A stretch of 64,000 nucleotides of DNA from an uncultured Alphaproteobacteria bacterium (GCA_963812475.1 CAWEVI010000007.1:2693-66692), one strand, 5' to 3'. Counted from the first letter of the stretch, positions 16,512-48,032 are shown. Translations and numbers: made by a program. The notes: a model not told the origin generated them from the letters alone.

Positions 16512-17087
16512 TCATCGTCCCGAGGCACTCTCCGACCGGCGAGACGGGTTCTGTAACGTCAAGGTAGCCATGCTTCCCCACACGCCATCTCGCCGGATCA
16601 GTCCATGGAACAGCGCCGCTGCCACATGGGCAAGGAATGTGGCGAACAACAGATAAGCCAACACCGTGTGCAACTGACGTAGTCCGGCGTACAGGATGGC
16701 GCTTTGTGGCAGAATCGGCGGCAACTCCACCGGTCCATATAGCACGATCGGGTAGCCGCCGGCGGAGAGCATGCCCCAGCCGACGAGGGGCAAGGCAAAC
16801 ATCAGTGCATACAGCGCGAAGTGCGAGGCCTTGGCTGCCAGTCGCTGTAGCGGAGGCAGCGTGGCCGGCAACGGCGGCGGCCTGTTGATCAGCCGGTTGA
16901 TGAAGCGGATCGCGACGAGGACCAGGATCGCGATTCCTAACGGCCTGTGGACCGATAGCAGCAAGCTGTAGCGCCCCGAGGCTGAAGCGGCCATCCCCAC
17001 GCCAATGAACAGCATGGCCAGAACCAGCAACGCCATCAGCCAGTGCAGCAGCCGGGACGGCGCGGAGAAGCGCTCGTCCGCGATCAT
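16512..17087 (-). CDS. Cytochrome b561 family protein
   Basis: 191 aa with four predicted TM helices and conserved His positions (LLHWLMALLVL, SVHRPLG, LHTVLAYLL.. HVAAALFH). Its ATG overlaps the stop of the upstream catalase-like gene (ATGA). Confidence 0.8.
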   Translation of the reverse strand: MIADERFSAPSRLLHWLMALLVLAMLFIGVGMAASASGRYSLLLSVHRPLGIAILVLVAIRFINRLINRPPPLPATLPPLQRLAAKASHFALYALMFALPLVGWGMLSAGGYPIVLYGPVELPPILPQSAILYAGLRQLHTVLAYLLFATFLAHVAAALFHGLIRRDGVWGSMATLTLQNPSRRSESASGR

Positions 17088-18187
17088 CGCCTGCCTCCTG
17101 CGGCGACCTCTTGCGGCGTCACCGCACTGGGCGGTTTCTGACCGCGTTCGCCCTCGCGCAGCGTGAACGAGCGGGAATAGGCAGCGGATCGGGCGCTCAG
17201 GATCGGGTCGTCGGACAGTTCGATTCCAAAGGGCAGCACCGTCGGGTCATAGTTCACGTCCGTGCATGGGCCGCCATCCTCGCTCGACACTTGATCAACG
17301 GTCACCATGCCGGCGTCGATTTGTTGACGGTCCTCCGGCCAGGGCAGTGTTGGGTTGATCGGATCATTGGGCTCTCCGACCGTGACGATAAGCCGCCACT
17401 GCACGGGGTGTGCCGCCACCTGGGCGATAAGTGCGTCGAACATGGCGTTCTTGTCGTCGGCGGTCGACCCATCTTGGGCCGGTGCGAACGGCTGGACCGG
17501 CACGGCGGACCACCTCACCGGCGTCACGACGCCCGCTGCGTTGATGAAGTGGAACGTGTGCAGGGCGTTGTAGGTCGCATCGGCAAAGCCGGAGGATACG
17601 GCACGGTTCCTGATGATTCCGACCGCGGCGACAAATTCAGGATGGGCAGCGGCGAATGCCTGTATTTTCGCGGGATCGGGCTTGCCGGTGACCGGGTCGG
17701 GCCTGCCGGTGAGGAGCTGGTCATAGAAGTCCTGTGCCGTTGACACCGGGAACACCGGGAGGTTGATCATACCGGTGCGCCATTCCTCACCGTTCGTCGG
17801 CAGAAACCGCAGCGCCAGGCTGCGCACCGTGGCGGGAGCGTCCGGGACGAACGGCAACCCTCCGGCGAACGCAATTCGACCCACGACGGGGACGCGACCC
17901 GGCGCGAACACCGCGGCTTTGGAGAGTGAAACTGCCTTCCCATTGCTCTCAAACCAACCGGTGGCGCAAATACCCTTCGCGTGGTTGCGGCGGAAGCCCG
18001 GGTGGAGTCCGTTGACCTCCTCGAAGCCCGCAATGATCCGATCCTGCGTCAGCCGAGCCGGCGAAAACCAGCCACCGGTAAAGGCGAACGCGGCCGCCAG
18101 ACACAGCACGACGGCGCCGATCACGCCAAGCCTCAGCAGCACAGCGGCCGGACTCAGATCCGGCTGGCTGCCGGTCGGGTCACGCAT
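17084..18187 (-). CDS. Catalase-related peroxidase (small catalase-family haem protein) with an N-terminal membrane anchor
   Basis: Motifs include HPGFRRNHAKGICATGWFESNG, VPVVGRIAFAGG, RSLALRF and PVFPVSTAQDFYDQL. Start chosen at MRDPTG (ATG 18187), followed by a TM helix (GVIGAVVLCLAAAFAF). Confidence 0.75.
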   Translation of the reverse strand: MRDPTGSQPDLSPAAVLLRLGVIGAVVLCLAAAFAFTGGWFSPARLTQDRIIAGFEEVNGLHPGFRRNHAKGICATGWFESNGKAVSLSKAAVFAPGRVPVVGRIAFAGGLPFVPDAPATVRSLALRFLPTNGEEWRTGMINLPVFPVSTAQDFYDQLLTGRPDPVTGKPDPAKIQAFAAAHPEFVAAVGIIRNRAVSSGFADATYNALHTFHFINAAGVVTPVRWSAVPVQPFAPAQDGSTADDKNAMFDALIAQVAAHPVQWRLIVTVGEPNDPINPTLPWPEDRQQIDAGMVTVDQVSSEDGGPCTDVNYDPTVLPFGIELSDDPILSARSAAYSRSFTLREGERGQKPPSAVTPQEVAAGGRR

Positions 18188-18376
18188 ACCGTCAAGCACT
18201 TTCCTGCTCCGTCCAGATGCACCCGCGCGATCGCTCGACACTGCACCATAGCAGTTGATCATCGCACGTATGGAATCGACTCATGTGCAGGCATAATACC
18301 GACACCCAGTTCAAATTCCCTCACCACCCTGGCATGCTCCAACCGGGCCCCGGAACAACGCCCGAGTTGTCGAACC

Positions 18377-18932: not shown

Positions 18933-19163
18933 GTGACCCCCTCGCGCAGACACCTGTTCGCCCTGCTCGGCCTCGTTCTGCCGGTCGCCGCCTTCACCGC
19001 CTCCCCGGTGTCGGCCGCAACCTCGAATTCGCTGCAACCCAAGGCGCAGACGCATCACGCCTCGAGCGCCTCGCACAAGTCGAAATCGCACCACTCGTCG
19101 TCCGTGCACAATGCCTCGCATCACGCGGCGCACCAGCCGTCCCACAAGTCGGCCGCCAGCTGA
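18933..19163 (+). CDS. Small secreted His/Ser-rich protein (76 aa precursor)
   Basis: GGAG lies 7 nt upstream of GTG 18933. The signal peptide is TPSRRHLFALLGLVLPVAAFTASPVSA. The mature ~48 aa contain about 10 His and 13 Ser (HHASSASHKSKSHHSSSVHNASHHAAHQPSH). Confidence 0.45.
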   Translation: MTPSRRHLFALLGLVLPVAAFTASPVSAATSNSLQPKAQTHHASSASHKSKSHHSSSVHNASHHAAHQPSHKSAAS

Positions 19164-19170
19164 CTTTCGC

Positions 19171-19710
19171 TTAGCTGCGCGCGTTCGCCTCCAGCAGCGC
19201 GCGCAGTCCTGCCAGTATTCGCTCTGGGGTCGGCGGGCAGCCACTGATCAGCAGATCGACGGGGAGCGTCGTGCCGATGCCTCCGCCGACTGCGTAGCTG
19301 CCCTTGAAGACGCCACCGTCCACCGCGCAATCCCCAACCGCCACGACGAATTTAGGATCCGGCGTTGCCGTCCAGGCCTGCTCCAGCGCCTCAACAAGGT
19401 TGCGGGTCAGCGGCCCGGTCACCAGAAGCACATCGGCGTGACGCGGACTGGTGACGAAAACCAGGCCGAACTGCGTCAGGTTGTAAATCACGTTCGTCAG
19501 GGCGCGGATTTCGATCTCGCAGCCGCCACAGCTTCCGGCATCGATGTGCCGGATGGCAAGGCTACGCCCCAGCCGTGCCCGCGATGTGGCTTCCAGCCTG
19601 CTCGCCAGCGACGCCGCGGTTTCGCCATCGACGGGAACAGGCAGTTCCGTGGCGGGACGCCCGCGCAGGGTACGGACGATCTGGCCAAGGACGTTACCGG
19701 GGACGTTCAT
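19171..19710 (-). CDS. NuoB/HycG-like small subunit of a group-4-hydrogenase-related (Ehr-type) complex
   Basis: 179 aa with exactly four Cys, at the positions of the proximal [4Fe-4S] ligands: GSCGGCEIEI, VGDCAVDGG and ISGCPP. Confidence 0.85.
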   Translation of the reverse strand: MNVPGNVLGQIVRTLRGRPATELPVPVDGETAASLASRLEATSRARLGRSLAIRHIDAGSCGGCEIEIRALTNVIYNLTQFGLVFVTSPRHADVLLVTGPLTRNLVEALEQAWTATPDPKFVVAVGDCAVDGGVFKGSYAVGGGIGTTLPVDLLISGCPPTPERILAGLRALLEANARS

Positions 19711-21209
19711 AGATCCACTCCCGAACTGGCAAGGTCGAACGAGGCCTGGATGAGCGGGAGATCAGCCACCTGGCCACTCGGCGCAGTCGCCTCGAAGAGC
19801 GGCCAGTGCCCCCAGCCCGGGTCGCGCATGAACACGCTGGCGATCTGACCATGATCCAGCCGCAACCAGTGCCAGACATCGCCTCGGGCGCTTTCGGCGA
19901 ACCCGACGCCCTCCCCGCTGTCGGCCGAAAGCGGGATGGATACCGCACCCGGCGGCAACGTATCGAGCAGATTGCGCAGCAGGCGGATGCTGTCACCGAT
20001 TTCCGCCAGGCGCAGCCGGGTCCGAGCATCGGCATCTCCAACGGCGAGCAGGGGCACCGGCCGCGCGAACGAGGCGTAGGCGCCGTAACCCGGAGAGCGC
20101 CGCACATCGAAGGCGCGTCCCGCCGCACGACCGATCACGCCGCCTGCTGCCAGGCTGCTCACCTGTGCAGCGCTGACGACGCCGAGACCGGAAAGCCGTG
20201 GGGCAAGCGGGGCTCGTTCGTACCGACGCTCCAGTTCCGGCAACCGTTCCGCAAGTTCGGCGACCACGCGCAGCACCGCTCCCGCGCCGCCAGGCGCCAG
20301 GTCCGCCGCAACGCCGCCGGGAACAACGCAGTCCATCATCAGCCTGTGGCCGAACGTAAGACCGGCAACGCGGTGCACGGCTTCCCGCTGGCGGCCGCAG
20401 AGCATCGGCAGTGCGGCAATGCCTGCCGCTTCCCCGATCGCAGCCAGCGCGCCGAGGTGACCCGCAATCCGCTCCAACTCCGCCATCACGGCGCGCAGTG
20501 CGACGGCCCTGAGCGGCGGCTCGGCTTCCAGCGCGGCCTCGGTCGCCTGCGCAAAGGCGATCGCGTGGGCGACGGTCGCCTCACCTGACAGGCGCGCCGC
20601 AAAGCGCGCGGCGGCGCGTGGTGACTTCCCGCGCATCAGGGCCAGCGTGCCCTTGTGGGTGTAGCCAAGCCGGGTCTCCAGCCGGACGATCGTTTCCCCT
20701 ACACCGGTCAGGCGCATGTGCGAGGCCGGCTCGATGTCGCCATGGACCGGGCCGAGCGGGATCTGGTCCAGGTCTTCGCCTGCAACCGACAGGAACTCAG
20801 CCGGTTCGCTCCGCGCGCGGAGATCATCGGAACGCAGTGCCATTGGGTGGGTCTGGGGCCAATGGCCATGGTCGAGCCAGGGGCGTTGATCGATCCCGTC
20901 TGCCGCCGTGTGCCCCCACAGGTCCTGCACCATGCACTCGAACCATGCGGACAAGGGGCGGCCGGGAGACAGCGCGGTATAGCGGCCCGCCTCAACCCGG
21001 GTGGAGGCCAGCAATGGTTCGTCGGCCGCTTCGTCGTACAGAATGGCATGGACGTGGGCCGTGTCGGCCCACAATGCCAGCAGTGCCAGTGTCGGTTCGC
21101 CGGCAAGTGCCGCGGCCATCTCCGTCCAGTCGGAGGGGGCCAGCATATGGCGCGGCCAGGGCCGGCAGGGTTCGGTTGCGGCGGACCGGATCAACGCCGA
21201 GGCGCTCAT
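19707..21209 (-). CDS. Fused NuoC-NuoD / HycE-like large subunit lacking all [NiFe] cysteine ligands
   Basis: 500 aa from ATG 21209. Core motifs include PLGPVHGDIEPASHMRL and LETRLGYTHKG. The RxCGxCxxxH position reads RLSGEATVAH. The C-terminal DPCxxCxxR position reads SFDLASSGVDL followed by the stop. The start overlaps the upstream stop by 1 nt. Confidence 0.85.
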   Translation of the reverse strand: MSASALIRSAATEPCRPWPRHMLAPSDWTEMAAALAGEPTLALLALWADTAHVHAILYDEAADEPLLASTRVEAGRYTALSPGRPLSAWFECMVQDLWGHTAADGIDQRPWLDHGHWPQTHPMALRSDDLRARSEPAEFLSVAGEDLDQIPLGPVHGDIEPASHMRLTGVGETIVRLETRLGYTHKGTLALMRGKSPRAAARFAARLSGEATVAHAIAFAQATEAALEAEPPLRAVALRAVMAELERIAGHLGALAAIGEAAGIAALPMLCGRQREAVHRVAGLTFGHRLMMDCVVPGGVAADLAPGGAGAVLRVVAELAERLPELERRYERAPLAPRLSGLGVVSAAQVSSLAAGGVIGRAAGRAFDVRRSPGYGAYASFARPVPLLAVGDADARTRLRLAEIGDSIRLLRNLLDTLPPGAVSIPLSADSGEGVGFAESARGDVWHWLRLDHGQIASVFMRDPGWGHWPLFEATAPSGQVADLPLIQASFDLASSGVDL

Positions 21210-22501
21210 CACCGGAACTCCGCCATGGTGCGGAACCAGCCGACCACCGGGCCCGGCATCGCCACCGCAAGGAACACGACCAGAGCGAGCTGCAGCCAGA
21301 TAGGCGCCAACCCCAGCAGACCGTCCGGGCTGCCGTCGCAGCGAGCGACGCCGCGTGCGGGTAGCACAACGAGCAACGATCCGGTGGCCAGCAGCACGCC
21401 CACACCCAGGGGCAGCAACAGCCACGGCGCCGTATTGGCGGTCGTGCCGGCGACAAGAAACAGCCCGAAGATCAGCAAACCCGCCAGGCAGAGCACGGAG
21501 GCTGTGCGGGTCCAGGCCGCGACCCCGGTTGCCGGGCCTTCGAGGCACTGCAGCGCCGAAGCCCTGGCGAATGTGAGCATCGTCATGAGCAGAAGTCCGC
21601 CCATCATCGCTGCCGTGCCGCCCAGTCCGAACGCAAAGACAATGACGCCCACCAGCGCAGTGCCGGCGAACGTCAGTCCGCGGCGCAGGGCCGGCCGTGC
21701 CGCCAGACAAAACGCGGCAAGCAGCAACGTCGCAAGGCCCACGACCACGAGCAGCACGATCGGACTGTCCTGGCCATCGGTCATTGCGGAGCGCAGCCGC
21801 AGAATCACGAGCAACGGCAGGTTCGCCAGCAGCGCGCCGATCAGTGTGGCAGCCTGTGGCGTGACTGCGTCGACGGCGTCGGCAAGCCACGCATGCAGCG
21901 GCACCAGCCCGGCGATTCCCCCATAGCCCAGGACCAGACAGATCAACGCGAGCCGGGATCCGCCCCACCTCGGCAGTGCGGCATCGGGTCGCGCAGCCAG
22001 ATCCAGCAAGAGCGTCCCGAACAACGCCAGCATGAGGCCCACTCCGCACAGCAGGAGAAGCTGGCCAGCGGCGTCCCGCGCCTCCGGACTGTGCACCACG
22101 CCGGTAAGCCCCGCGGCGGCGGCGATCGCGATGGTCGTGCCGAGCCATGTCATGGCAGGGCTGTCGGACAGTACCGCAAGGAGGACCCCGCCAAGCAGGG
22201 CCTGAAATGCGACATGGTGGTGGCGGGTGCCGCGCCGATCGAGCCGCCGCGCCGCGAGTGCAGCGCGAACATCGCGCCAGCCAAACCAGCTCGTGGTCAT
22301 CGCGACGAAAGCGCTGAGCAGGGCCAGATGCGCCGGAAGAACGGTGCGAAGTTGCCAGGGCAACAGGCACGTCAGAATGAACGCCAGAGTGGTCGCGGCA
22401 GCGTTGATCCAGACGCCGGCTCGCCAAGAATCGATGCATGCCAACAAGACAGCGGAGCCGAACGGCAACCCTACGACAACGTCCGGAAACATCAGGCGCA
22501 T
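21209..22501 (-). CDS. Antiporter-like membrane subunit (HyfF / NuoN-M family)
   Basis: 430 aa and polytopic, with the motif GLVPLHAWLADA typical of Mrp/NuoLMN-type subunits. Confidence 0.75.
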   Translation of the reverse strand: MRLMFPDVVVGLPFGSAVLLACIDSWRAGVWINAAATTLAFILTCLLPWQLRTVLPAHLALLSAFVAMTTSWFGWRDVRAALAARRLDRRGTRHHHVAFQALLGGVLLAVLSDSPAMTWLGTTIAIAAAAGLTGVVHSPEARDAAGQLLLLCGVGLMLALFGTLLLDLAARPDAALPRWGGSRLALICLVLGYGGIAGLVPLHAWLADAVDAVTPQAATLIGALLANLPLLVILRLRSAMTDGQDSPIVLLVVVGLATLLLAAFCLAARPALRRGLTFAGTALVGVIVFAFGLGGTAAMMGGLLLMTMLTFARASALQCLEGPATGVAAWTRTASVLCLAGLLIFGLFLVAGTTANTAPWLLLPLGVGVLLATGSLLVVLPARGVARCDGSPDGLLGLAPIWLQLALVVFLAVAMPGPVVGWFRTMAEFR

Positions 22502-23103
22502 GGCGATGCGAGGTCCGGCCGACTTCGGTCATGCAGGCACACGCTTGCAACGATAATGGCCGGAACCAGTGGAATCGCGGCAAGAAGCAGTGCAGACGCC
22601 GGCAGCCGGGGAATGAAGCAAGCCGCCAGCGATATGCCATTCTGCGATACGAGCAGGCCGAGAGCCGGCAGCAGAGGATGCGACCGCAGTGCCAGAAGCA
22701 GGAAGCTCAGCAGCAGAATGGACAAACCCGCGGTCAGCACCTCGAACTGCTCGCCCTGCGTCAGTCGCATCACGGCCGCCGCGGATGCCGCCACCATCAC
22801 AAACGCCGCAGCAGCCGAGGCGACGAACCCGACCCGCCATGCAATGGACCGCGGCACATTCGTTCGTCCGATGACCCGCCGCAGAGCGAGCGGCAATGCG
22901 ATCCCGTTCAATGCGAAAATCAGCAGGGCGGCGATGCAGAGCGAGGCGGAATGGAGCGCCCAACCCTGTGCTGCTGCGGCCAAGGCGATGGCCAGAGCCT
23001 GCGCAACGCAGACACGCAGGGCGGCGGCGAACTGTCCCACGAACAACGTCGCGAATGACAGGGACAGAGCCAATGCGCCGGCCAATGCTGCGACTCCGGT
23101 CAC
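22492..23103 (-). CDS. HyfE-like small membrane subunit
   Basis: ~203 aa, entirely hydrophobic helices. GTG 23103 forms a GTGA overlap with the upstream stop. The 642-aa track ORF is an alternate-frame artefact upstream of this point. Confidence 0.6.
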   Translation of the reverse strand: MTGVAALAGALALSLSFATLFVGQFAAALRVCVAQALAIALAAAAQGWALHSASLCIAALLIFALNGIALPLALRRVIGRTNVPRSIAWRVGFVASAAAAFVMVAASAAAVMRLTQGEQFEVLTAGLSILLLSFLLLALRSHPLLPALGLLVSQNGISLAACFIPRLPASALLLAAIPLVPAIIVASVCLHDRSRPDLASPCA

Positions 23104-24047
23104 ACGGTACCCGCACTGGCGAACAGGAACACCACTGCCAACAAACCGAGCAGGATGGCGACGCCTAGCACGTGCGTCACATGCTCCAGCCGCGCGCGGC
23201 CCATCGTGGTGTGCAGCAGCGCGAGCACGCCGGCCAGCACCAGCAGTTTCGCCACCCAGCAGACGAAACCCAGGAGCAATGCCGCGACTCCCGCACCCGC
23301 GGCAGCGATGCCGAACGGCACGAACATGGCGATGACCAGGTCGAACCAGACCAGCCGACGTAGCGCTTCGGTCGCGTCGATCACAGCCAGGTCGCGGCCG
23401 CTGAATTCCAGTGTCGTCGCCTCGCGCCGCATGGCCAGTTCCAGCCGCGCGGCCGGTCCGTTCAGGCCGTCGACGATCGCCACCAACACCGTGGCGATCA
23501 GGGCAAGTCCGGCACCCGTCTGCCAACCGGCGCCACTTTCCTGCTGCATTGCCGCGATGACGTCCAGATTGCTGCTGCCCGCGAGCAAGCCAAGCGCGAA
23601 GATCGCCAGCACCAGAGCCGGCTCCGACAGAACACCAAACGCCATTATCCGGCTGGCTCCCATGCCGCCGAGTGCGGTGCCGGCATCCATGCCTGCGAGG
23701 GCGATCGAACAGCGTGCCAGGGACAGCAGTCCGGCAATCACCAGCAGATCGGCGAACGGGGCCAGGGTCATGCCCAAGGTGAACGAGGGCACCATCACTG
23801 CTACGATCGCGACCGCGGCGAGCGAAAGCAGCGGCGCAATGGCCGAGACCTCCGAGGCGCTCTCGGCCATCACCGGCTGCTTGCGGAGCAGGCGAGCCAG
23901 GTCCTGCCACGGCTGCAGGACAGGTGGACCAACCTGACCTGCCAGGCGCGCCTCCATCCAACGAATGATGCCGATCAGCGTCGGCGCGGCAGCCGCCATC
24001 AGCGCGACGTGTGCGACCTGCTCGACGAAGGCGACTGCGAGGTTCAC
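23100..24047 (-). CDS. NuoH / HyfC-HycD-like membrane subunit
   Basis: The N-terminus parallels HycD (APTLIGIIRWMEARLAGQVGPPVLQPWQDLARLLRK). I prefer GTG 24047, which gives a GTGA overlap with the upstream stop. ATG 24083 is the alternative. Confidence 0.75.
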   Translation of the reverse strand: MNLAVAFVEQVAHVALMAAAAPTLIGIIRWMEARLAGQVGPPVLQPWQDLARLLRKQPVMAESASEVSAIAPLLSLAAVAIVAVMVPSFTLGMTLAPFADLLVIAGLLSLARCSIALAGMDAGTALGGMGASRIMAFGVLSEPALVLAIFALGLLAGSSNLDVIAAMQQESGAGWQTGAGLALIATVLVAIVDGLNGPAARLELAMRREATTLEFSGRDLAVIDATEALRRLVWFDLVIAMFVPFGIAAAGAGVAALLLGFVCWVAKLLVLAGVLALLHTTMGRARLEHVTHVLGVAILLGLLAVVFLFASAGTV

Positions 24048-25960
24048 GACGCCACCAGCCAGACGGCGACCGCCACCACCCATGCCGCAAGAGTGATTGC
24101 GACCGATCCGGAAATGCCAGGTCGGGCGGCGATTCCACCGCCACGACCCAGCCAGGCAACCAGCCGGACGAACGACGTCCGGAGGCGATCCACTGCGCCG
24201 GGCAACGCACGCCAGGGAGCGAGGACGCGGCGCAATGGTTCCGCGAAAGACGCCGCGCCGATCTGCGTCGTCGGATCCCCGAATGGCAGCCAGGGCGGCG
24301 GTGGCGAAAACCCACCGGACCAGGCTGCCTCACGCCGATGTCCGGACCCGCGCCGGCGCGACAGCCACAGCATGGTGTAGCAGACCAGCGCCAGCAGGCC
24401 GGCAATCGCAGCCGGGGCATAACCCGGCGCCTCGGCGCCCGGTTTCAGGATTAGCGCCATGCGAAGCCCCGACCCGTTGGCCAGTCGGGCAAGGCCGCGC
24501 GCCGCCGGAAGCAAAGCAAGCACGGGAAAGACACCGAGCAGTCCGGTCAGCGCCGCAAGACCGATCAGGCAAAAACGGAGCGCCCCCCTCACCTCCTCGG
24601 CAACGGCTGCGCGCGGCGTCCGTGGTCTGCCAAGAAAAACGACCCCGGCTACTCGGATCGCCGCCATTGCGGCAAGACCCACCGATAGCGCCGCAGCCAG
24701 GATGGCGAATGCGATCAGGAGTTGCAGACCGAACCCACCAATGCGGAAGCCCGCCAGCAGCGATTGCACCAGCAGCCAAAAACCGGCGAAGCCCAGCCCG
24801 GGTGGCAGCATCGCAGCGCCTAACAGCCCGGCGAACGCGCAACGGGTGGTGATTGGCATGCGGTGGATCACGCCGCCCAACCGGTCGAGCCGCCGCGTAC
24901 CCGAACCACTTTGCGCCGCACCGGCGCAGAGCAGCAGCAGGGTTCCGCATAGCGCACGGGTCACCAGCAGCAACCAGGACGCGTCGAGCGCGAGCGAGGC
25001 GACCTGCGGCAGGTCCGCGGCGTGCGCAAACAGCGCCACGCCAAGGCCCATCACTGCCAGTCCCGTCTGATGCAGCGATGCGATGGCAAACACGGGTTCC
25101 AGACGTGTTTCGAATGTCGCCAGCAGCGGCCCGAGCACCGCGGAGAATGCGCCTATCAGGAGCAGCGGCACGCCCCACCAGAGCGGTTGCGCAGTTCCGC
25201 ACAGGTCCAGCAGGAAACGGAACATCAGGTAGGCGCCGATGTTGGCGCCGACACCGACGAGCAGCGCGGCAGCGTTGCCGAGCCGCGGTATCCACGCGTG
25301 CAGTGGGCACAGGCCGGCCAGACCCGTCGCACCCAGCAGGACCAGCAACAGCACGGCGCACGCCCGCCATCCGTCCGGCGGCATGGCTCGTATCGCCGCA
25401 TAGTCGCAATCGAGCCACGGAACCGAAGGCGGGGCCATCAGAGCAAGTGCCGCGATCAGGCAGACGATGCCGAAACCGGCGAGAGCGGGATACAGCCCCG
25501 GGGCGAGCCCCGTTTCACCTTCGTCCGGACGAGGCGACAGCAACAGCCAGCCGGCAAAGCCCAGTCCCGCCAGACCCAGCGCCAAGGTGAAGGCATCGTC
25601 GGCCAGCACGGTCATGGCTACCGCCGCGAGCGCGGCTGGGAGTCCCGCAATCGGGGCAGACGCCGCGGCCGGTTCGGCGTCAGCGAACACGACACACGAG
25701 ATTGCAGCGACGAACAGCAGCAGAAGGAATGCCGCGCCGAGCGGATCAATCCCAAGGTGCATCACACCGCCCAGCGGACCAATCGGCAGTGCGACGACTG
25801 CCATCTCGCCGTCAACCAGCAGCGAGGCGAGAACAGCCAGGGCGATCAGGCCAGACGCGGCGGCAGTTCCCAGCGTCACCACACTGCGCGGGACAACGAT
25901 CGAGACAATCGCCAATCCGACCAGCGCCGCGATGAGAATCGCGAGCAGTATCAGGACCAC
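24044..25960 (-). CDS. NuoL / HyfB-like antiporter-type membrane subunit
   Basis: 638 aa, GTG start, polytopic. It has CPLHAWIPRLG in place of the usual PxHxWLPxA motif. It is the first gene of the operon. Confidence 0.75.
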   Translation of the reverse strand: MVLILLAILIAALVGLAIVSIVVPRSVVTLGTAAASGLIALAVLASLLVDGEMAVVALPIGPLGGVMHLGIDPLGAAFLLLLFVAAISCVVFADAEPAAASAPIAGLPAALAAVAMTVLADDAFTLALGLAGLGFAGWLLLSPRPDEGETGLAPGLYPALAGFGIVCLIAALALMAPPSVPWLDCDYAAIRAMPPDGWRACAVLLLVLLGATGLAGLCPLHAWIPRLGNAAALLVGVGANIGAYLMFRFLLDLCGTAQPLWWGVPLLLIGAFSAVLGPLLATFETRLEPVFAIASLHQTGLAVMGLGVALFAHAADLPQVASLALDASWLLLVTRALCGTLLLLCAGAAQSGSGTRRLDRLGGVIHRMPITTRCAFAGLLGAAMLPPGLGFAGFWLLVQSLLAGFRIGGFGLQLLIAFAILAAALSVGLAAMAAIRVAGVVFLGRPRTPRAAVAEEVRGALRFCLIGLAALTGLLGVFPVLALLPAARGLARLANGSGLRMALILKPGAEAPGYAPAAIAGLLALVCYTMLWLSRRRGSGHRREAAWSGGFSPPPPWLPFGDPTTQIGAASFAEPLRRVLAPWRALPGAVDRLRTSFVRLVAWLGRGGGIAARPGISGSVAITLAAWVVAVAVWLVAS

Positions 25961-26021
25961 GGCGTCACCGGCGCGGGGTGCGACTCGCTCACGTCGTCAA
26001 GGATAACGCGTAGGGCGGAAA

Positions 26022-26067
26022 AGCGCAGCGCATTCCGCCGCCAGGACGTGGCGAAATGCGCTGCGCT
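26022..26067 (-). terminator. Hairpin directly downstream of the aldo/keto reductase gene and upstream of the Ehr operon
   Basis: AGCGCAGCGCATTCCGCC (26022-26039) pairs with GGCGAAATGCGCTGCGCT (26050-26067), with 1 mismatch in 18 bp. On the minus strand it is followed only by TTT, so this is a weak intrinsic terminator or an operator. Confidence 0.45.
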
Positions 26068-26071
26068 ATCT

Positions 26072-26911
26072 CTACGAGACGTCGAGCGACTGCTTGCGCC
26101 CCGGTGGCGGGTGCGCGGCGTCGATCACCGCGAGGTCTTCGTCGCTGAGCACGATCTCGCCGGCGACGGCATTCTCGCGCACATGGGACTGATCCGTCGC
26201 CTTCGGAATCGCGATCACGTTGTCATGCCGCATGGTCCAGGCGATGGCGATCTGTGCCGGCGTTGCATCGTGTCGCTTCGCGACAGCGATCAGCGCTTTC
26301 GATTGCAGCAGTCGGCCCCCCTGCCCCACCGGCGAATACGCCATCAGTGGGATTTTGTGTTCGGTCGACCATGGCAGCAGATCGTATTCGATGCCACGGC
26401 TCCCGACATGATACAAAACCTGGTTCGTGGCGCAGTGCGTGCCGTGCGGTAGCCGGACCAGCTCCTGCATGTCGCCGGTGTCGAAATTGGATACACCCCA
26501 GTAGCGGATTTTTCCGGCTTCCCGCAGCTGTTCGAACGCCGCCACCGTATCGGCCAACGGATGGCTGCCGCGCCAGTGCAGCAGATACAGATCGATCCGG
26601 TCGGTCCGCAGCCGCTTCAGGCTGCGCTCGCACGCCGCCAGCACACCCGTGCGCGAGGCATTGTGCGGCAGCACCTTGCTGACGATGAAAAGACCATCGC
26701 GCCGGCCAGCGGTCGCTTCGGCGACGATCTCTTCAGCCGCACCATTGCCGTACATCTCGGCTGTGTCGATCAACATCACGCCAAGCTCGATGCCGAGCTT
26801 GAGTGCCGCCACCTCATCCTTGGCGGCGCGGGTCCGCTCGCCCATGTGCCAGGTACCCTGGCCGAGTGCCGGGATCTCGGTCCCGTCCGGCAGCTTTACA
26901 GTGCGCATCAA
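26072..26911 (-). CDS. Aldo/keto reductase (2,5-diketo-D-gluconate reductase-like)
   Basis: 279 aa with LGQGTWHMG, IDTAEMYGN and IDLYLLHWRG. Confidence 0.85.
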   Translation of the reverse strand: MMRTVKLPDGTEIPALGQGTWHMGERTRAAKDEVAALKLGIELGVMLIDTAEMYGNGAAEEIVAEATAGRRDGLFIVSKVLPHNASRTGVLAACERSLKRLRTDRIDLYLLHWRGSHPLADTVAAFEQLREAGKIRYWGVSNFDTGDMQELVRLPHGTHCATNQVLYHVGSRGIEYDLLPWSTEHKIPLMAYSPVGQGGRLLQSKALIAVAKRHDATPAQIAIAWTMRHDNVIAIPKATDQSHVRENAVAGEIVLSDEDLAVIDAAHPPPGRKQSLDVS

Positions 26912-41206: not shown

Positions 41207-41563
41207 ATGATGCAGGAGTTGGCTGGCTCGCTGGTCGACGATGCGCTGCTACGGTCTTGCATGCTCCCGCTGTCGTACGGCACCGGCACATCGCCGAGGA
41301 CGATCGAGGCGATGACCGGAGGAAAGGCGATGCTCGACACGGCTGTAGCGTTCCAGGGGCTGGAGGTGACGTCGGCGATAGGGGTTGTTGTCGAGGACGA
41401 TTTGGAGCGCATGGCTGAGCTGCCTGGCGATGACGCAGGCAGGAGGCGTATCACCGCGGTGCCACGGTGGTTTGCTGCGCGGTCGGACAATCACGCTGCG
41501 TATCACGCGTATTTGAGGCAACTGGAGTTTTCGTTGTGGCGGCGAATCCGGATAGGAGGTTGA
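41207..41563 (+). CDS. Hypothetical protein (weak call)
   Basis: The ORF ends 3 nt before the FkbM gene. No family was recognised. The start at ATG 41207 is a guess. Confidence 0.25.
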   Translation: MMQELAGSLVDDALLRSCMLPLSYGTGTSPRTIEAMTGGKAMLDTAVAFQGLEVTSAIGVVVEDDLERMAELPGDDAGRRRITAVPRWFAARSDNHAAYHAYLRQLEFSLWRRIRIGG

Positions 41564-41566
41564 ACT

Positions 41567-42541
41567 ATGGCCGGCTTGCCGAGCACAGTTCATCAGATCT
41601 TCCGCCAGGCGGCGCAGACAATTCCGCAGGTGCGAAGTCTCATTGACGCTCGCGATGTTGCGCTGGCCAGTCGCGACCTGGCGGTAGCGGGGCGACAGTC
41701 CGCGGAGGCTGCGCTGGCTTCGGCAGTATCCAGCCAATCGGAACTGTTTCGCCGATTTCTGAATGCGTGCGCCCCTGACTGCTGGCTGCGACTTGAACTC
41801 AACGGAGCAAAGCTATGGCTCCCACGCGATACGCTACTGACAATGTTTCATTGTCTCCATACCGGAGGTGCAAAGCTCTATCTTGCTGTGGAGGAGCGCC
41901 ACCTGAACTGGATGATGCAGCATCTGGAAGACGGCGGTACGTTTCTTGATGTGGGTGCCGCCACAGGCGCCACGACTTTGCCAATCGTTCTTCGCTTTGG
42001 TGACGCCGTTCGAATCATATCCTACGAGCCCGCGGAGGCTGCCAGGACTCTGCTGCTTGCAACGCTCGAGCGAAATCACATCGCGGGTGTCGAAGTTCGT
42101 TCCTCTGCTGTCGCGGATGCTTCCGGAACCGCCGAGTTTCGCGAGTTCCTGCCCGATGACGATGGTACGACACCCTGGCTTCCCGAGACATCCACGCTGA
42201 TCGGAAATATCATTTCCGATAGACCCCACCACACTGTCACCGTGCCGGTTGTGACGCTCGACGAGGACGCATATCACATGTGTGAACGCAAACCGGTTGT
42301 GATCAAGATCGATGTTGAAGGCTTTGAGACGCAGGTTCTGCGTGGCGCAGAGCGGCTGATCTCCGAGTTCCGTCCATGGCTGTCGATCGACATCCACGCC
42401 GAGCCCTTTGGTGATGGATCAGAAACTACAGAGCAGTCGGTTCGAGATCTCCTCAGTCGGTATGACTATGGCTTCAGCAAGGTCGATCATGTGCTTTTGT
42501 GCACGCCTCGGCCTGATCTGTCCGGTTTGGATCGCCACTGA
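41567..42541 (+). CDS. FkbM family methyltransferase
   Basis: AGGAGG lies 8 nt upstream of the ATG. Motifs are FLDVGAATGATTLP and VIKIDVEGFETQVLRGA. Confidence 0.8.
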   Translation: MAGLPSTVHQIFRQAAQTIPQVRSLIDARDVALASRDLAVAGRQSAEAALASAVSSQSELFRRFLNACAPDCWLRLELNGAKLWLPRDTLLTMFHCLHTGGAKLYLAVEERHLNWMMQHLEDGGTFLDVGAATGATTLPIVLRFGDAVRIISYEPAEAARTLLLATLERNHIAGVEVRSSAVADASGTAEFREFLPDDDGTTPWLPETSTLIGNIISDRPHHTVTVPVVTLDEDAYHMCERKPVVIKIDVEGFETQVLRGAERLISEFRPWLSIDIHAEPFGDGSETTEQSVRDLLSRYDYGFSKVDHVLLCTPRPDLSGLDRH

Positions 42542-42561
42542 CCATCGGGTAGGTAGCCTGG

Positions 42562-43746
42562 ATGAAGCGCATGTCGAACCGGTCGCCAAAGATCAATGAT
42601 ATACAGCAACTGCGCGGGCTGGCCGTGCTCCTGTCAGTGTTCGCGCATATGCCGCTCGCCACCGGTGTATTCATCGCCTTGGGTCTGCCGAGCCCGCTTT
42701 GGATTGGCGTGCCACTATTTTTCGTGATCAGCGGCTATGTCATTACGGTTTCGACCAACCGGTACGTTTTTTCGCCGCTGAGATTTTACATCCGACGAGT
42801 GTATCGCATCTTCCCCGTCCTGATAGTGACGCTGCTGCTTGCCTTCTTCCTCGCATTGCTGACGCGTGATCAGCAATTCTATGGTCCGCTCAAGGACCTG
42901 TACGATAATATCATAGCAATTGTTCTTATGTACCACAATTACTATGGGATAATCGGTATTTGGTTCGGTCACGGCGCGGTACCGTTGTCGCTGAAGGGTC
43001 TATGGTCGATTTCTACGGAAGAGCAGTTTTACCTGTTGTTTCCATTGCTCATGGTTGTGGGAGGACAGCGATGGCGAATTCTGACCCTCGCATTGCTATT
43101 TTTCACGTGGAGTGTCGCTGGGCGCCTGTTCGCGCTCTTCATTCAGCCACACGAGTTTCCGGAATTCGCGACGCTGTCTCGAGTGCTGTTGTCCTACAGT
43201 TTTGGCTACGACCTCATTCTGGCTGGGCTCCTGATCTACTACGCATTGGCCGATTGGCGACCGTCGCGCTGGCTCGGAAGATTCGGACTCATGGCTGCCT
43301 TGACGTATGGCTTGTGTCGCCCTGGGCCGCTGCGTGACACGATAGGATATTGGACCTTCGTTGCCGGGTTGGTTGCAGCTGTTTCGGCAGCCAAGGAGGA
43401 CATCGGCGTTCTATTCCCTCACACCAGCATTCTGGGGCGGGCATTCTTCTGGCTGGGCGAGCGTAGCTATGTGATCTACGTCATGCATTTCCAGGTTCTG
43501 TCTCTGCTCGGGTATGTATTGCAGCGGTTCGCGATCAACTTCACCCATCCCCAGCTTTACAGTGTCGGGCTCACGGTATTATCGATACCGTTCCTCCTGG
43601 TCATTGAAGTACTGCATCAGCGCGTCGAAAGGCCAGGCATTCGAATGGGCTACCGGCTCTGCGACCGGATAGCCGCTAGAACGAACAGTGCGGACCCCCG
43701 ACAAGATGATAGATTGCCCCTGATCCGGCTTAGGGAGCGTGGGTAA
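42562..43746 (+). CDS. Acyltransferase family 3 (OafA/YrhL-like O-acyltransferase)
   Basis: 394 aa and polytopic, with the N-terminal motif IQQLRGLAVLLSVFAHM and FFVISGYVI. GC content is visibly low. Confidence 0.8.
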   Translation: MKRMSNRSPKINDIQQLRGLAVLLSVFAHMPLATGVFIALGLPSPLWIGVPLFFVISGYVITVSTNRYVFSPLRFYIRRVYRIFPVLIVTLLLAFFLALLTRDQQFYGPLKDLYDNIIAIVLMYHNYYGIIGIWFGHGAVPLSLKGLWSISTEEQFYLLFPLLMVVGGQRWRILTLALLFFTWSVAGRLFALFIQPHEFPEFATLSRVLLSYSFGYDLILAGLLIYYALADWRPSRWLGRFGLMAALTYGLCRPGPLRDTIGYWTFVAGLVAAVSAAKEDIGVLFPHTSILGRAFFWLGERSYVIYVMHFQVLSLLGYVLQRFAINFTHPQLYSVGLTVLSIPFLLVIEVLHQRVERPGIRMGYRLCDRIAARTNSADPRQDDRLPLIRLRERG

Positions 43747-44806
43747 ACCACATCGAACCACCCCCGCGCCAGCTATCGCTCGCGCCCCCCAGATCAACGA
43801 TCGGCCGCTCAAACCAGCGACCAAATTGCGGAGCGCGGCAGACCCAGGCAGTTGGAAAGATCGGAATGACCCGATCCCGTGCACCGATCAGGTAGGCTGC
43901 CAAGATATAGGCTTCGCTCCAGTACCAGTTGATGAACATGTCCGGATAGTCCCATGGCAGCGTGATGTCATGCACGTGAATCAACACGCCTGGTTTGAGG
44001 CGCGGCAACACATCGATCATGAAAACTGTAACATCGCTGTTCATAAAGGCTCGGTGCGATCCGTCCATGAACAGAATGTCGCCTGGCTCCAGCGCGTCGA
44101 AGAGAGAGACGTTGCAAGTCTCCAGCCCTTGGCGTATCACCTCGTCGCAGATCGCATCGATCGCCGCCCGTGGCTCGGGATCAATCGAGATGATCCGGGT
44201 TGACAGCCCGTGGTCCTGAATTGATCTTTTCGCAAATGCGGTAGTGACACCGGACCCGATCTCCAGATAGAGCCGGGGCTTCGTCTCACCAACCAGGGTA
44301 TAAAGTGCGGCCGAATCAAACGGAGCAAACGGCACGCCAAACCATGCCGGCTCGAGTGTGCGATGGTCGAATTGCAGCGGGATTTTTGCCAACAGATTTG
44401 CCCGGTCAGCCATGGCACGGAGGATCTGTCGATAGTCCTCATCGTGCTCGGCCACCCAGGCGGCAATGGGCGCAATTGGCGGAAGCGTTGTCCCCCACCG
44501 CGGTCGCAGATCACGAGAGGGAAGGTAATCAAGCGGGATTGCATATCGCGCATATTCGGTACCGGGTTGCATCGCGTACTGCTTGACACCCAGGGCAGCC
44601 AACGACGGTACGCTTTCGTTTGCACCGGCGTGATTCAGACACAATTGCAACTCGGCCACCCGACCGAGTGCCGCGTCACGCTGCTCGACGATACGTCGAA
44701 TGGAAGGTGCCAGCATGGCCGCTCTTTTGGCAATTTGCCGGATCACTTTGTTCCTCCCTTCGCGGTCCCTGCCCGCGAAATCGCTGTCATCATGACAGCA
44801 GAGCAC
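43730..44806 (-). CDS. Class I SAM-dependent methyltransferase-like protein (glycan-modification type)
   Basis: Motifs are YLEIGSGVTTAF, IISIDPEP and ILFMDGSHR. The start is uncertain (44806 or ATG 44716). Confidence 0.55.
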   Translation of the reverse strand: MLCCHDDSDFAGRDREGRNKVIRQIAKRAAMLAPSIRRIVEQRDAALGRVAELQLCLNHAGANESVPSLAALGVKQYAMQPGTEYARYAIPLDYLPSRDLRPRWGTTLPPIAPIAAWVAEHDEDYRQILRAMADRANLLAKIPLQFDHRTLEPAWFGVPFAPFDSAALYTLVGETKPRLYLEIGSGVTTAFAKRSIQDHGLSTRIISIDPEPRAAIDAICDEVIRQGLETCNVSLFDALEPGDILFMDGSHRAFMNSDVTVFMIDVLPRLKPGVLIHVHDITLPWDYPDMFINWYWSEAYILAAYLIGARDRVIPIFPTAWVCRAPQFGRWFERPIVDLGGASDSWRGGGSMWFTHAP

Positions 44807-44939
44807 GGTGATTTCGCGTGGTCATATCGATGATCCCGTTTCCCGGAGGTTCGCGGTGGCCTGATGGAAACCGCAGCGCCGCCGACCGTGTGTCGCACGG
44901 GATCGAGACCAGTCGATCAGGCCTCACCCGATCCTGGGC

Positions 44940-47900: not shown

Positions 47901-48032
47901 CAGCCGCTGATAGACCGACTGTCCTCCGCCCACGAAGCGATACAGATCGAAGTCGAGTATAAGAATATGATGGCCGTGGCTGTGGCCATCGTCCACCGGA
48001 TTGGGGCGAAAAGTTTGCGGGACTACGTCCAT
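44940..48032 (-). CDS. Large bifunctional glycosyltransferase (N-terminal GT4-like and C-terminal GT2-like domains)
   Basis: 1030 aa. The GT-B region is LLMLPSRQDTFNLTALEAIRHGCPVLVS. The GT-A region is VSVIVSLYDAATKL...VVLVDSNSPADE...FLGADEGL, containing a DxD-like motif. Confidence 0.75.
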   Translation of the reverse strand: MDVVPQTFRPNPVDDGHSHGHHILILDFDLYRFVGGGQSVYQRLIALRPDDTFYYFCRLETADAPRPANARTIPYQITYRPRAVHMPRQLAHLVGPYVECRNLAASARNALGIDFEFHVADAPDYNQLGIFIRPALQAEGLHVSTVAVAMHGTLSSAFKAGWPTGRADAPMLAELRVREHLQFRAADARYAISRDYAAYWTRYAPLDVNMLDPLCIVDRLEPILPEHGSEPADLAFIGRREKWKGPDLFLDIAWWIDPALYRRLLLIGPDGPNYLGTGSDVTLMDMARQRGLQLDLVGAWPRGELNALFSGRTLLMLPSRQDTFNLTALEAIRHGCPVLVSNRAGVADWLRTNLPELDWLITDIDCSRTAASHAALILSDYDVYREKLVAALRRLRLRPDGATVDTVYLPSPHLDLGARQTTVDLAARLALLLRLDRTLESGRVPRSGGAVRQSADRLLPHELRRAIRIAARNVKTAGGDVLTTVRRSVGRARLKTAVRDFAGHSPRAFIQVNRSRHLTALRELMLNSPERRGKEVLAKIANLSRQLPDRLVDRVRLFRELVRLERRAGSDMVAATYALRLMRWLGRDEYGDLPFVAATLEREGFAHEFRVALAMFGSGPDAFDRCLDLMHDARERNRQNPDRPLAVVDDRRNGASPRVSVIVSLYDAATKLRTLLTVLNQQSVARRGELEVVLVDSNSPADERGAFSAFAAENSLPIVYARSRDRETIQAAWNRGIQLSRAPYLAFLGADEGLHPDALCRLAGALDADSGADWAMADSLVTSVDRNGVFDADIMPYDRQGYRQDLVYLDTCYLSWVGGLYRRSIHDRFGWYDESFRAAGDTEFKNRIMPHIRSVYVPGMLGVFNNYPEERTTQNPRAEIEDLRSWYLWRTTAGMHYAFANRPAEHAARLFVDALSYRKSFCGHVSTDFDLAASVAEHLVGRPDAPAWASAAASESRAILSLVRGIDLVPNDMPRGPRGLLAALWVHRQLTAMRRLAVKHRSLFAMTQVPHYEVFNDNRYEQHWYSWSDR

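Follow-up and report, generated by a model that had tools for sequence, protein, structure and literature searches.

The 64,000-nucleotide (nt) stretch of DNA analysed here (positions 2693-66692 of contig CAWEVI010000007.1, assembly GCA_963812475.1, to be referred to as the window) comes from an Acetobacteraceae bacterium of a derived lineage. On its minus strand, between positions 19171 and 25960, it carries a six-gene operon, the product of which is almost certainly a complex-I-like membrane complex with six subunits, of the Hyq/Ehr type (Ehr for energy-converting-hydrogenase-related). As sequence alignments show, the lineage of the window has lost the ion-translocating axis of the membrane arm. 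The picture that we favor, with somewhat better than even confidence, is that of a non-pumping, reductively evolving Hyq/Ehr derivative, the iron-sulfur (Fe-S) head of which is under selection. The loss of the NiFe site has been published before. New here is that all proton-path residues are lost in a complex still under selection; no description of a loss of pump residues in Ehr or Hyq was found in the literature searched.

The six open reading frames (ORFs) are arranged in the order A-B-C-D-L-S, and were found where the original prediction for this DNA had placed them:

Gene A, 24044-25960, minus strand: 638 amino acids (aa), GTG start; HyqB/EhrA/HyfB/NuoL-like, antiporter-like membrane subunit.
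Gene B, 23100-24047, minus strand: 315 aa, GTG start; HyqC/HyfC/NuoH-like; Pfam PF00146 (NADHdh), 92 bits.
Gene C, 22492-23103, minus strand: 203 aa, GTG start; HyqE/HyfE-like small membrane subunit.
Gene D, 21209-22501, minus strand: 430 aa; HyqF/HyfF/NuoN-like, antiporter-like; Pfam PF00361, 42.6 bits.
Gene L, 19707-21209, minus strand: 500 aa; HyqG/EhrL-like, a fusion of a NuoC-like N-terminal domain and a NuoD/HycE-like one.
Gene S, 19171-19710, minus strand: 179 aa; HyqI/EhrS/NuoB/HycG-like; Pfam PF01058 (Oxidored_q6), 105 bits; best NCBIfam model NuoB.

The matches in Pfam and NCBIfam agree with the subunit assignments, with the NCBIfam matches of the operon proteins all under the curated cut-offs. 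Protein A matches PF00361 (Proton_antipo_M) with 58.5 bits and the NCBIfam model for hydrogenase 4 subunit B with 289 bits (cut-off 667). The best NCBIfam model for protein D, which is about 50 aa shorter than canonical HyqF, is hydrogenase 4 subunit F. Protein L matches PF00346 (Complex1_49kDa) with 114 bits and, weakly, PF00374 (NiFeSe_Hases) with 37.6 bits, and its best NCBIfam model is NuoD. Protein C has no match in Pfam or NCBIfam, and is identified by its position in the operon and by phmmer matches to ORFs of the family. Protein S is the best conserved of the six.

From A to S, neighboring genes overlap by 4 (GTGA), 4 (GTGA), 10, 1 (TGATG) and 4 (ATGA) nt. The first of these values presumes the GTG start of gene B; an alternative ATG at 24083 gives a protein of 327 aa and a 40-nt overlap. 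The recovery of all six ORFs with overlaps of 1-10 nt bears out the proposal of one translationally coupled six-gene operon.

In complex I, the proton path includes a glutamate in transmembrane helix 5 (TM5), lysines in TM7 and TM8, two histidines and a lysine in TM11, and a glutamate in TM12. Proteins A and D were aligned with E. coli NuoL, NuoM, NuoN, HyfB, HyfD, HyfF and HycC, and with their counterparts in the related loci (66 family members for A). The canonical pattern at these seven positions is EKKHHKE in A (53 loci and E. coli HyfB) and EKNHHKE in D (about 70 loci and HyfF). The corresponding residues in the window are A131, L214, N240, L331, R335, G339 and F394 in A, and T123, I196, N227, L305, L309 and R313 in D, where the 'SEF' segment of TM12 is deleted. 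All seven positions are replaced in A, and six of the seven are replaced or deleted in D, as the Asn in TM8 of D is also canonical in HyqF and HyfF. The flanking motifs align unambiguously (PLHAWIP, for example), and GATGLAGLCPLHAWIP pairs with GAGSKAGLVPLHVWLP.

The losses extend to the other membrane subunits. Protein C has N66, Q154, L172 and S200 where the canonical family and E. coli HyfE share four ionisable residues (Lys, Glu, Glu and Asp), and both membrane glutamates of this HyfE-like subunit are thereby replaced. Protein B retains 8 of the 9 ionisable residues common to the canonical family, HyfC, HycD and NuoH; its losses are Glu to Ile134, Asp to Ala200, and Glu to His279. Over the whole complex, the ionisable residues that are invariant in canonical operons are retained at 47 of 55 positions in L, 9 of 13 in S, 15 of 28 in B, 6 of 15 in A, 7 of 24 in D and 4 of 15 in C.

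The AlphaFold2 model of D has a pLDDT (predicted local distance difference test) of 86.9 and a pTM (predicted template modelling score) of 0.88, and Foldseek matches it to NuoM, NuoN and MrpD with TM-scores of 0.80-0.82. The membrane subunits in the charge-less subclade have 2-3 times the cysteine content of the canonical ones. New cysteine chemistry in the membrane arm was considered and dropped, as these cysteines are not conserved above background (7/11, 1/5 and 3/8, compared to 36-50% overall).

The pattern of replacements suggests that the complex probably does not pump ions in the manner shared by complex I, Mrp, MBH and Hyf. The name Ehr, under which the complex was originally placed, implies an energy-converting complex, and this is contradicted here by the replacement or deletion of the canonical ion-translocation residues in A, D and C. 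A canonical energy-converting Ehr complex, in which redox chemistry in L and S powers the movement of ions through the antiporter-like subunits, on the model of Ech, Hyf, MBH and complex I, would account for the shared subunit set and gene order of Ehr and Hyq, the retained [4Fe-4S] ligands (see below), the antiporter-like fold, and the NuoH-type charges kept in B. It is nevertheless very unlikely, since about 70 canonical relatives and HyfB/HyfF have, without variation, the Glu, Lys and His residues of the axis in A and D and both glutamates in C that are replaced or deleted in the window.

The second set of losses is in the large subunit, at the two motifs that hold the NiFe site in hydrogenases:

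Former L1 motif, 20565-20594, minus strand: R-L-S-G-E-A-T-V-A-H (residues 206-215), in place of RxCGxCxxxH.
Former L2 motif and C-terminus, 19707-19742, minus strand: S-F-D-L-A-S-S-G-V-D-L followed by the stop codon (residues 490-500), in place of DPCxxCxxR and the extension.

A phmmer search of the Protein Data Bank with L finds HycE as the best match (7z0s_E, E = 9e-33). RVCGICGFAH of HycE is aligned with RLSGEATVAH, and DPCYSC with DLASSG (residues 492-497), so that the positions of the NiFe ligands are occupied by S208, A211, A494 and G497 in the alignments to HycE and HyfG. The C-terminal VDL of L aligns with TDR of HycE, and the extension that is cleaved in HycE is absent. The original prediction had described the ligands as replaced by Ser, Ala, Ala and Gly, with no maturation extension; the alignment confirms this, and with no true Cys at either motif its register stands. 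The AlphaFold2 model of L (pLDDT 82.2) has HycE (7z0s_E) as its best Foldseek match, with a TM-score of 0.88, followed by fused NuoCD proteins.

All four ligand cysteines are missing in each of the 120 closest database homologs as well (55-99% identity), which share the replacement motifs R-L-S-G-[DE]-[SA]-T-V-A-H and S-F-x-x-x-x-S-G-V-D-L-stop. Moreover, the same L protein is found, identical, on five independently assembled contigs. The replacements are therefore not due to chance or to the decay of a single copy. The product of this operon cannot be a [NiFe] hydrogenase. Ehr complexes are NiFe-less relatives of group 4 hydrogenases, and their function is regarded as unknown (PMC6728331, PMC7894505, PMC6349859, PMC10284858, PMC10432482). 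The assignment to this NiFe-less, group-4-related class holds, with a large subunit without NiFe cysteines, a NuoB-like subunit and membrane subunits all present.

The best-described relative is the hyqRBCEFGI 'endo-hydrogenase' of Azorhizobium caulinodans, which is controlled by NifA (Ng et al. 2009, PMC2650096; Sprecher et al. 2012, PMC3357923). Its large subunit HyqG is without both CxxC motifs and has three other cysteines (258, 491 and 497) that are completely conserved, and HyqI has four cluster cysteines (PMC2650096, PMC3357923). HyqG encoded on pRL11 of Rhizobium (504 aa) has Cys259, Cys491 and Cys497, and the HyqI next to it has Cys55, Cys58 and Cys152. This match to the published HyqG identifies the canonical loci of the present comparison as the published Hyq family.

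Within the family, only the alphaproteobacterial branch has the three HyqG cysteines, and canonical loci have Cys at these positions in 66, 69 and 64 of 75 sequences. The equivalent residues in the window are G259, I487 and L493. In addition, GALAAIGEAA is found in place of the family motif GDxGAxxNDA, and QASFDLASSGVDL in place of NKSFNxxYxGxDL. The changed positions include pocket residues that are conserved in the wider family (Asp254, Asn/Asp260-261, Lys489, Asn492 and Tyr495), and the polar pocket residues changed in L are otherwise shared by Rhizobium, Burkholderia and Rhodococcus. Small or hydrophobic residues have taken the place of the three cysteines and of several polar residues in the HyqG pocket. 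The original prediction had described the Ehr class as a proposed intermediate between group 4 hydrogenases and complex I. The copy in the window, without the three HyqG cysteines, is instead a derived offshoot and not a typical Ehr.

In the wider Hyq/Ehr family (canonical loci L008-L086, L101 and L102), a polar signature stands in place of the NiFe motifs: R-x-[SA]-G-D-[ST]-T, GDxGAxxNDA and NKSFNxxYxGxDL. It is common to Alpha- and Betaproteobacteria and Actinomycetota, and the Rhodococcus and Burkholderia copies share R-x-[SA]-G-D-[ST]-T ... NKSFNxxYxGxDL. This signature points to a defined, putative non-NiFe active site in the wider family.

The original prediction also held that no role had been demonstrated for any Ehr complex. 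This does not apply to hyqRBCEFGI, for which there is genetic evidence: deletion in A. caulinodans leads to slower diazotrophic growth, and the operon has been connected with the recycling of H2 and, at low oxygen, with its evolution (PMC2650096, PMC3357923). The complex of the window could by analogy be an unconventional, Hyq-like hydrogenase, oxidizing or evolving H2 at a non-NiFe site of L and exchanging electrons with ubiquinone, given that the orthologous canonical operon has the same gene order and the same small-subunit cluster. We regard this as extremely unlikely. The four NiFe cysteines and the three Hyq cysteines are all absent, the pocket residues are changed, and no hyp, hup or nif genes are present in the 64-kb window. 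HydDB was moreover trained to exclude Ehr sequences, and treats them as non-hydrogenases (PMC5037454).

A complex-I-like quinone site in L was considered and rejected. The equivalents of the quinone-site His and Tyr of NuoD, which the original prediction had marked for inspection, are both absent. Gly209 of L aligns with the quinone Tyr of complex I (RLDY), and the β1-β2 loop (GPVHGDIEPASH) has the length and Glu-Pro motif of hydrogenases and does not contain the His loop of complex I.

The Fe-S ligands of the head are intact. The [4Fe-4S] ligands in S are C61, C64, C128 and C158, equivalent to C63, C64, C129 and C158 of E. coli NuoB and also aligned with those of HycG and HyfI, and S is in this respect a small subunit with a proximal [4Fe-4S] site. 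All four columns contain Cys in 77-78 of 78 family members, and likewise in the remnant loci described below. There is one local difference: residues 77-80 (window 19473-19481) are N-L-T-Q, compared to D-x-E-R in every other family member, HyfI and HycG, and NuoB shares the Asp and Arg of this motif. T79 and Q80 are identical in three independent assemblies, which shows that they are not a sequencing error, and are specific to the species-level lineage.

The loss of the axis residues (to be referred to as the charge-less state) is not confined to the window. It is found in eight species genomes, these being Acetobacteraceae/Rhodopila metagenome-assembled genomes (L005, L007, L019, L023, L024, L026, L032 and probably L025), and in four more metagenome contigs (L093-L096), with L proteins of 69-87% identity. 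Among the carriers of the charge-less operon are a Rhodopila chromosome (OZ241370.1), GCA_049583485.1 and the Microflora Danica metagenome-assembled genomes. About 75 database clusters of D are charge-less, down to about 41% identity, and full-length. A metagenome scan with the D protein finds near-identical fragments only. In a neighbor-joining tree of L, calculated without bootstrap, the charge-less loci are monophyletic, and their sister group is formed by canonical operons of Rhodospirillales/Acetobacteraceae. The gene order M19 dipeptidase - aldo-keto reductase (AKR) - operon - DUF1489 is shared by the window and its canonical Acetobacteraceae relatives, and the presence of canonical operons at the same chromosomal position indicates that the charges were lost in place.

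All six ORFs are intact and their overlaps are conserved in five genomes, at synonymous distances (dS) of 0.26 to about 0.9. The ratio of non-synonymous to synonymous substitutions (dN/dS), calculated by the Nei-Gojobori method (NG86), which is crude in a genome of 65% GC, is 0.07-0.17 for S, 0.18-0.29 for L, 0.19-0.34 for B, 0.26-0.41 for A, 0.22-0.39 for D and 0.28-0.60 for C within the clade. For comparison, it is 0.11-0.27 in the flanking genes, and 0.09-0.23 (A), 0.08-0.19 (D) and 0.12-0.27 (C) in the canonical operons of Bradyrhizobium/Afipia. The constraint on S is no weaker than that on ordinary neighboring genes. The dN/dS values, together with the fold of D, indicate that the membrane subunits are still constrained as folded membrane proteins, less so than in their pumping relatives.

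Among the relatives there is a series of states: canonical, intermediate, charge-less six-gene, and three-gene remnant. The intermediate (L099, 3639-10313) has E-L-G-H-H-K-L in D and a partly stripped A, and its L is already without the three cysteines. Its gene A is called as two ORFs (179 and 438 aa), which could reflect a real frameshift or a long-read assembly error. In the remnant (L100, 7001-9824), A, B and C are gone and D (376 aa), L (393 aa, with an internal deletion of 70 residues) and S (172 aa, with the four cysteines) are left; its S protein is 78% identical to that of the window and 81% to that of L096.

These states bear directly on the main rival explanation, in which the complex is a functionless relic. 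Its role would have been lost, for example H2 recycling after the loss of nitrogen fixation, and the ORFs would be intact only through slow decay. Such a relic would be expected to have relatives with progressive losses, as seen in the split gene A of the intermediate and in the deletions of the remnant, and it would agree with the raised dN/dS of A, C and D relative to canonical operons. It would also agree with the loss of the Hyq-defining cysteines, the pocket residues and the otherwise universal Arg of S, and with the lack of hyqR and of NifA or sigma-54 signals upstream. What decay does not readily explain is the integrity of six ORFs and their overlaps in five genomes at the dS values given above, dN/dS well below 1 for every gene, with S as low as or lower than its neighbors, and the retention of full length in about 75 divergent charge-less D clusters. 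Even in the three-gene remnant S is 78-81% identical, and the upstream leader is conserved. On this evidence the relic is an unlikely explanation for the operon, if the strongest of the rivals.

From the gene content, the residue losses, the cluster ligands, the folds, the intact ORFs, the dN/dS values below 1 and the degeneration series, we infer a complex that does not pump, with a redox-active head and its partners as follows. In the non-pumping derivative that we favor, the membrane arm would no longer couple anything to proton or sodium pumping, and A, C and D would be kept mainly as a folded scaffold in the membrane. The head that S and L form on B would be a one-cluster, membrane-attached redox module. 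The retained ligands suggest that this head may still be redox-active, to which we give slightly less than an even chance. It would most plausibly pass electrons between a cytoplasmic, soluble carrier and the membrane quinone pool, without energy conservation. The lineage as a whole would be in slow reductive evolution, shedding the parts that are not needed.

Several observations weigh against this proposal. The complex is known in this lineage from its genes alone. A NuoI/HycF-type ferredoxin subunit is missing, and none of the genes beside the operon in 57 related loci is a conserved candidate for electron input. With Gly at the position of the complex I Tyr and a hydrogenase-type loop, L does not have the quinone ligands of complex I, and quinone reduction is as a result without positive sequence support. 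S in the window has lost the universally conserved Glu-Arg pair (Glu to T79 and Arg to Q80), the dN/dS of the membrane subunits is 1.5-3 times that of canonical relatives on the crude estimate used, and one relative (L100) has deleted A-C and part of L. These points also fit an ongoing loss of function.

There are two further possibilities. The head could have been exapted for a new, non-bioenergetic role, sensing redox state or oxygen from its anchor in the membrane, or serving another complex as a scaffold or in assembly. That selection is strongest on S and L, that the transport machinery is dispensable, that one lineage has kept S and L with only D beside them, and that there is no dedicated electron-input subunit would all be in keeping with such a change of use. 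Against it, no regulator, kinase or partner gene is conserved beside the operon, and nothing in the sequences suggests a signaling output; this possibility is very improbable. The second is that a membrane arm cleared of its 'proton wire' (A, D, C and part of B), yet maintained by purifying selection in many species with its folding and translational coupling intact, belongs to a working complex rather than a dying cluster, either an obligatorily uncoupled redox module or a scaffold for new chemistry in the hydrophobic former NiFe pocket. This stronger version is rather unlikely in our estimate. A working uncoupled module, if it exists, would be a 'pump-dead' control for redox-ion coupling, and would show what the L/S/H head does by itself.

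If the operon is expressed, the function of the head is separable from pumping, which would help to decide what Ehr/Hyq complexes do, and the membrane arm would offer complex I research a naturally evolved uncoupled system. If it is not expressed, it is a well-resolved case of the slow reductive evolution of a respiratory complex. In both cases, hydrogenase-4, formate hydrogenlyase and NADH-quinone oxidoreductase are wrong annotations.

The region upstream of the operon contains one further feature:

Leader, 25961-26075, minus strand: between the AKR gene and gene A.

The leader (about 111-115 nt) has a predicted fold of -57.8 kcal/mol (z = -4.5), with a near-perfect hairpin of 55 nt at about 26018-26072. 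The hairpin is an insertion of about 60 nt, found only in the window and in its closest relative (L093), into an otherwise conserved intergenic region of 52 nt. It resembles a REP-like palindrome or a terminator of the AKR gene. The core of the leader, at about 25961-25992 (GTGAGCGAGTCGCAC...CCGGTGACGCC), is conserved in the alignment of all five genomes. In L096, the leader element GTCGCAC(G)CAGGGTT is present in about three tandem repeats upstream of gene A (about 1680-1762), which hints at the core GTGAGCGAGTCGCAC as a candidate protein-binding or regulatory site.

A promoter scan finds no sigma-70 site upstream, and a terminator scan finds only intragenic terminator-like matches, fewer than in shuffled sequences. 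Within 450 nt upstream there is no NifA site (TGT-N10-ACA) and no sigma-54 site (TGGCAC-N5-TTGC). No helix-turn-helix (HTH) gene precedes the operon, the AKR gene being found there instead; in Rhizobium, an HTH gene overlaps hyfB. The genome-wide search for hyp, hycI and fdhF that had been suggested was carried out at the scale of the 64-kb window, where no hyp, hycI or fdh genes, and no hup or nif genes, are present. When ORFs of at least 100 aa were clustered in 57 related loci, nothing outside the six genes was found in more than 14 of them. Formate dehydrogenase, NuoEFG, ferredoxin and hyp partners were considered as candidates from genomic context, and none is supported by this clustering. 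The M19 dipeptidase, AKR and DUF1489 genes also adjoin canonical operons, which identifies them as lineage synteny and not as partner candidates.

Other features of the window are described here for completeness. The AT skew of the plus strand is 0.21-0.39 over 20001-26000, compared to about 0 elsewhere in the window, which fits the T-rich second codon positions of minus-strand membrane proteins and not a replication or mobile-element signal. A small ORF on the plus strand (18933-19163), convergent to S and called with 76 aa in other assemblies, has a signal-peptide-like N-terminus and a tail rich in His, Ser and Lys (…HHASSASHKSKSHHSSSVHNASHHAAHQPSHK…). ORFs of similar size are found at the same place, between the operon and DUF1489, in L002, L096 and L100. 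The product could be a periplasmic metal-binding peptide. Just beyond DUF1489, at 16512-18262 on the minus strand, a catalase-family gene (PF00199, about 370-390 aa) overlaps by 4 nt with a following gene for a cytochrome b561/Ni_hydr_CYTB-type protein (PF01292, 190 aa), and this neighborhood is not conserved in L094-L096. The GC content falls to 0.56-0.60 at 41500-48000, compared to about 0.65 elsewhere. The genes in this segment encode an FkbM-type methyltransferase, an acyltransferase_3 protein, another methyltransferase and a multi-domain glycosyltransferase of 1030 aa, and are probably a horizontally acquired surface-polysaccharide cluster.

The family to which the operon belongs is widespread. 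A scan of one genome per species finds at least 598 matching loci, mostly in Alphaproteobacteria (Acetobacteraceae, Bradyrhizobium, Xanthobacter, Azospirillum, Afipia, Rhodopseudomonas and Hyphomicrobium), with further matches in Acidobacteriota and Beta- and Gammaproteobacteria. The order A-B-C-D-L-S is seen in 47 of 82 related loci as called, and also in the remainder, barring truncated contigs and ORF-calling artefacts. Copies on plasmids or chromids are found in Rhizobium, Azospirillum, Burkholderia, Cupriavidus and Rhodococcus. The expectation that such operons would be mis-annotated automatically is borne out by the labels of the relatives, which include 'Ni,Fe-hydrogenase III large subunit', 'nickel-dependent hydrogenase large subunit', 'NADH-quinone oxidoreductase subunit C', 'hydrogenase 4 subunit B/F' and 'HypE'; formate hydrogenlyase is also among the inconsistent labels of the plasmid and chromid copies.

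One of these copies, on plasmid pRZP3 of Rhodococcus sp. ZPP (L101, 1951-9239), is an operon of the Mycobacterium tuberculosis Ehr type, with the order S-A-B-C-D-L. The plasmid is mobilisable, and the operon lies beside an IS110 transposase and integrases. Its D protein has lost the TM5 Glu and the TM7 Lys (Leu and Ala), and its A protein keeps E-K-N-H-H-K-E. The losses in this D protein show that other members of the family, too, have lost some of their pump residues.

A comparison with known systems places the complex closest to Hyq, as found in A. caulinodans and in Rhizobium leguminosarum (pRL11), Bradyrhizobium, Rhodopseudomonas, Xanthobacter and Azospirillum. These operons have the same six structural genes, in the order hyqB-C-E-F-G-I and with tight coupling. 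They also have a fused NuoC-NuoD protein of about 500 aa without CxxC motifs or extension, a NuoB-like protein with four cysteines, and no equivalent of HyfA, HyfD or HyfH/NuoI. In comparison, the window is without hyqR, the NifA/sigma-54 signals, the three HyqG cysteines and the pump residues of HyqB, HyqF and HyqE. Its D protein is about 50 aa shorter, and there is no nif/hup context in the 64 kb.

The Ehr complexes of Geobacter sulfurreducens (EhrA-D, L and S, GSU0739-45), M. tuberculosis (Rv0082-Rv0087), Nitrospira, Margulisbacteria and ammonia-oxidising archaea have the same set of subunits, EhrA-D, L and S (PMC7894505); those of Geobacter and M. tuberculosis were compared by description. 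The wider family retains the pump residues, apart from the two lost in the Rhodococcus D protein, and the polar pocket residues, and the lineage of the window has lost both sets.

The closest match of L in sequence and structure is found in the E. coli hydrogenases, hydrogenase-4 (HyfABCDEFGHI) and hydrogenase-3 (HycBCDEFG, 7Z0S). Relative to these, the window has no NiFe ligands, no extension, no HycI, no HyfA/HycB, HyfH/HycF or HyfD, and no EKKHHKE/EKNHHKE residues. Complex I (NuoA-N) shares homologs of NuoB, of NuoC-NuoD (fused as in E. coli), of NuoH and of NuoL/M/N, as well as the positions of the ligands of cluster N2. The complex of the window differs from it in having six subunits only, with no NuoEFG, NuoI, NuoA, NuoJ or NuoK as such. 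The first two ligands in S form a CxxC motif instead of a tandem CC, Gly replaces the quinone Tyr, and the charged axis is absent.

The Pyrococcus complexes MBS/Mbx (6U8Y) and MBH (6CFW) are built from the same modules, and are matched by L at 2e-17 and 2e-27, respectively; subunit H of MBS matches the model of D. They differ in having 13-14 subunits, among them a ferredoxin subunit resembling NuoI, and sodium modules of the Mrp type in which the charged residues are intact. MBS is itself a case in which the hydrogenase scaffold has been re-used without a NiFe site.

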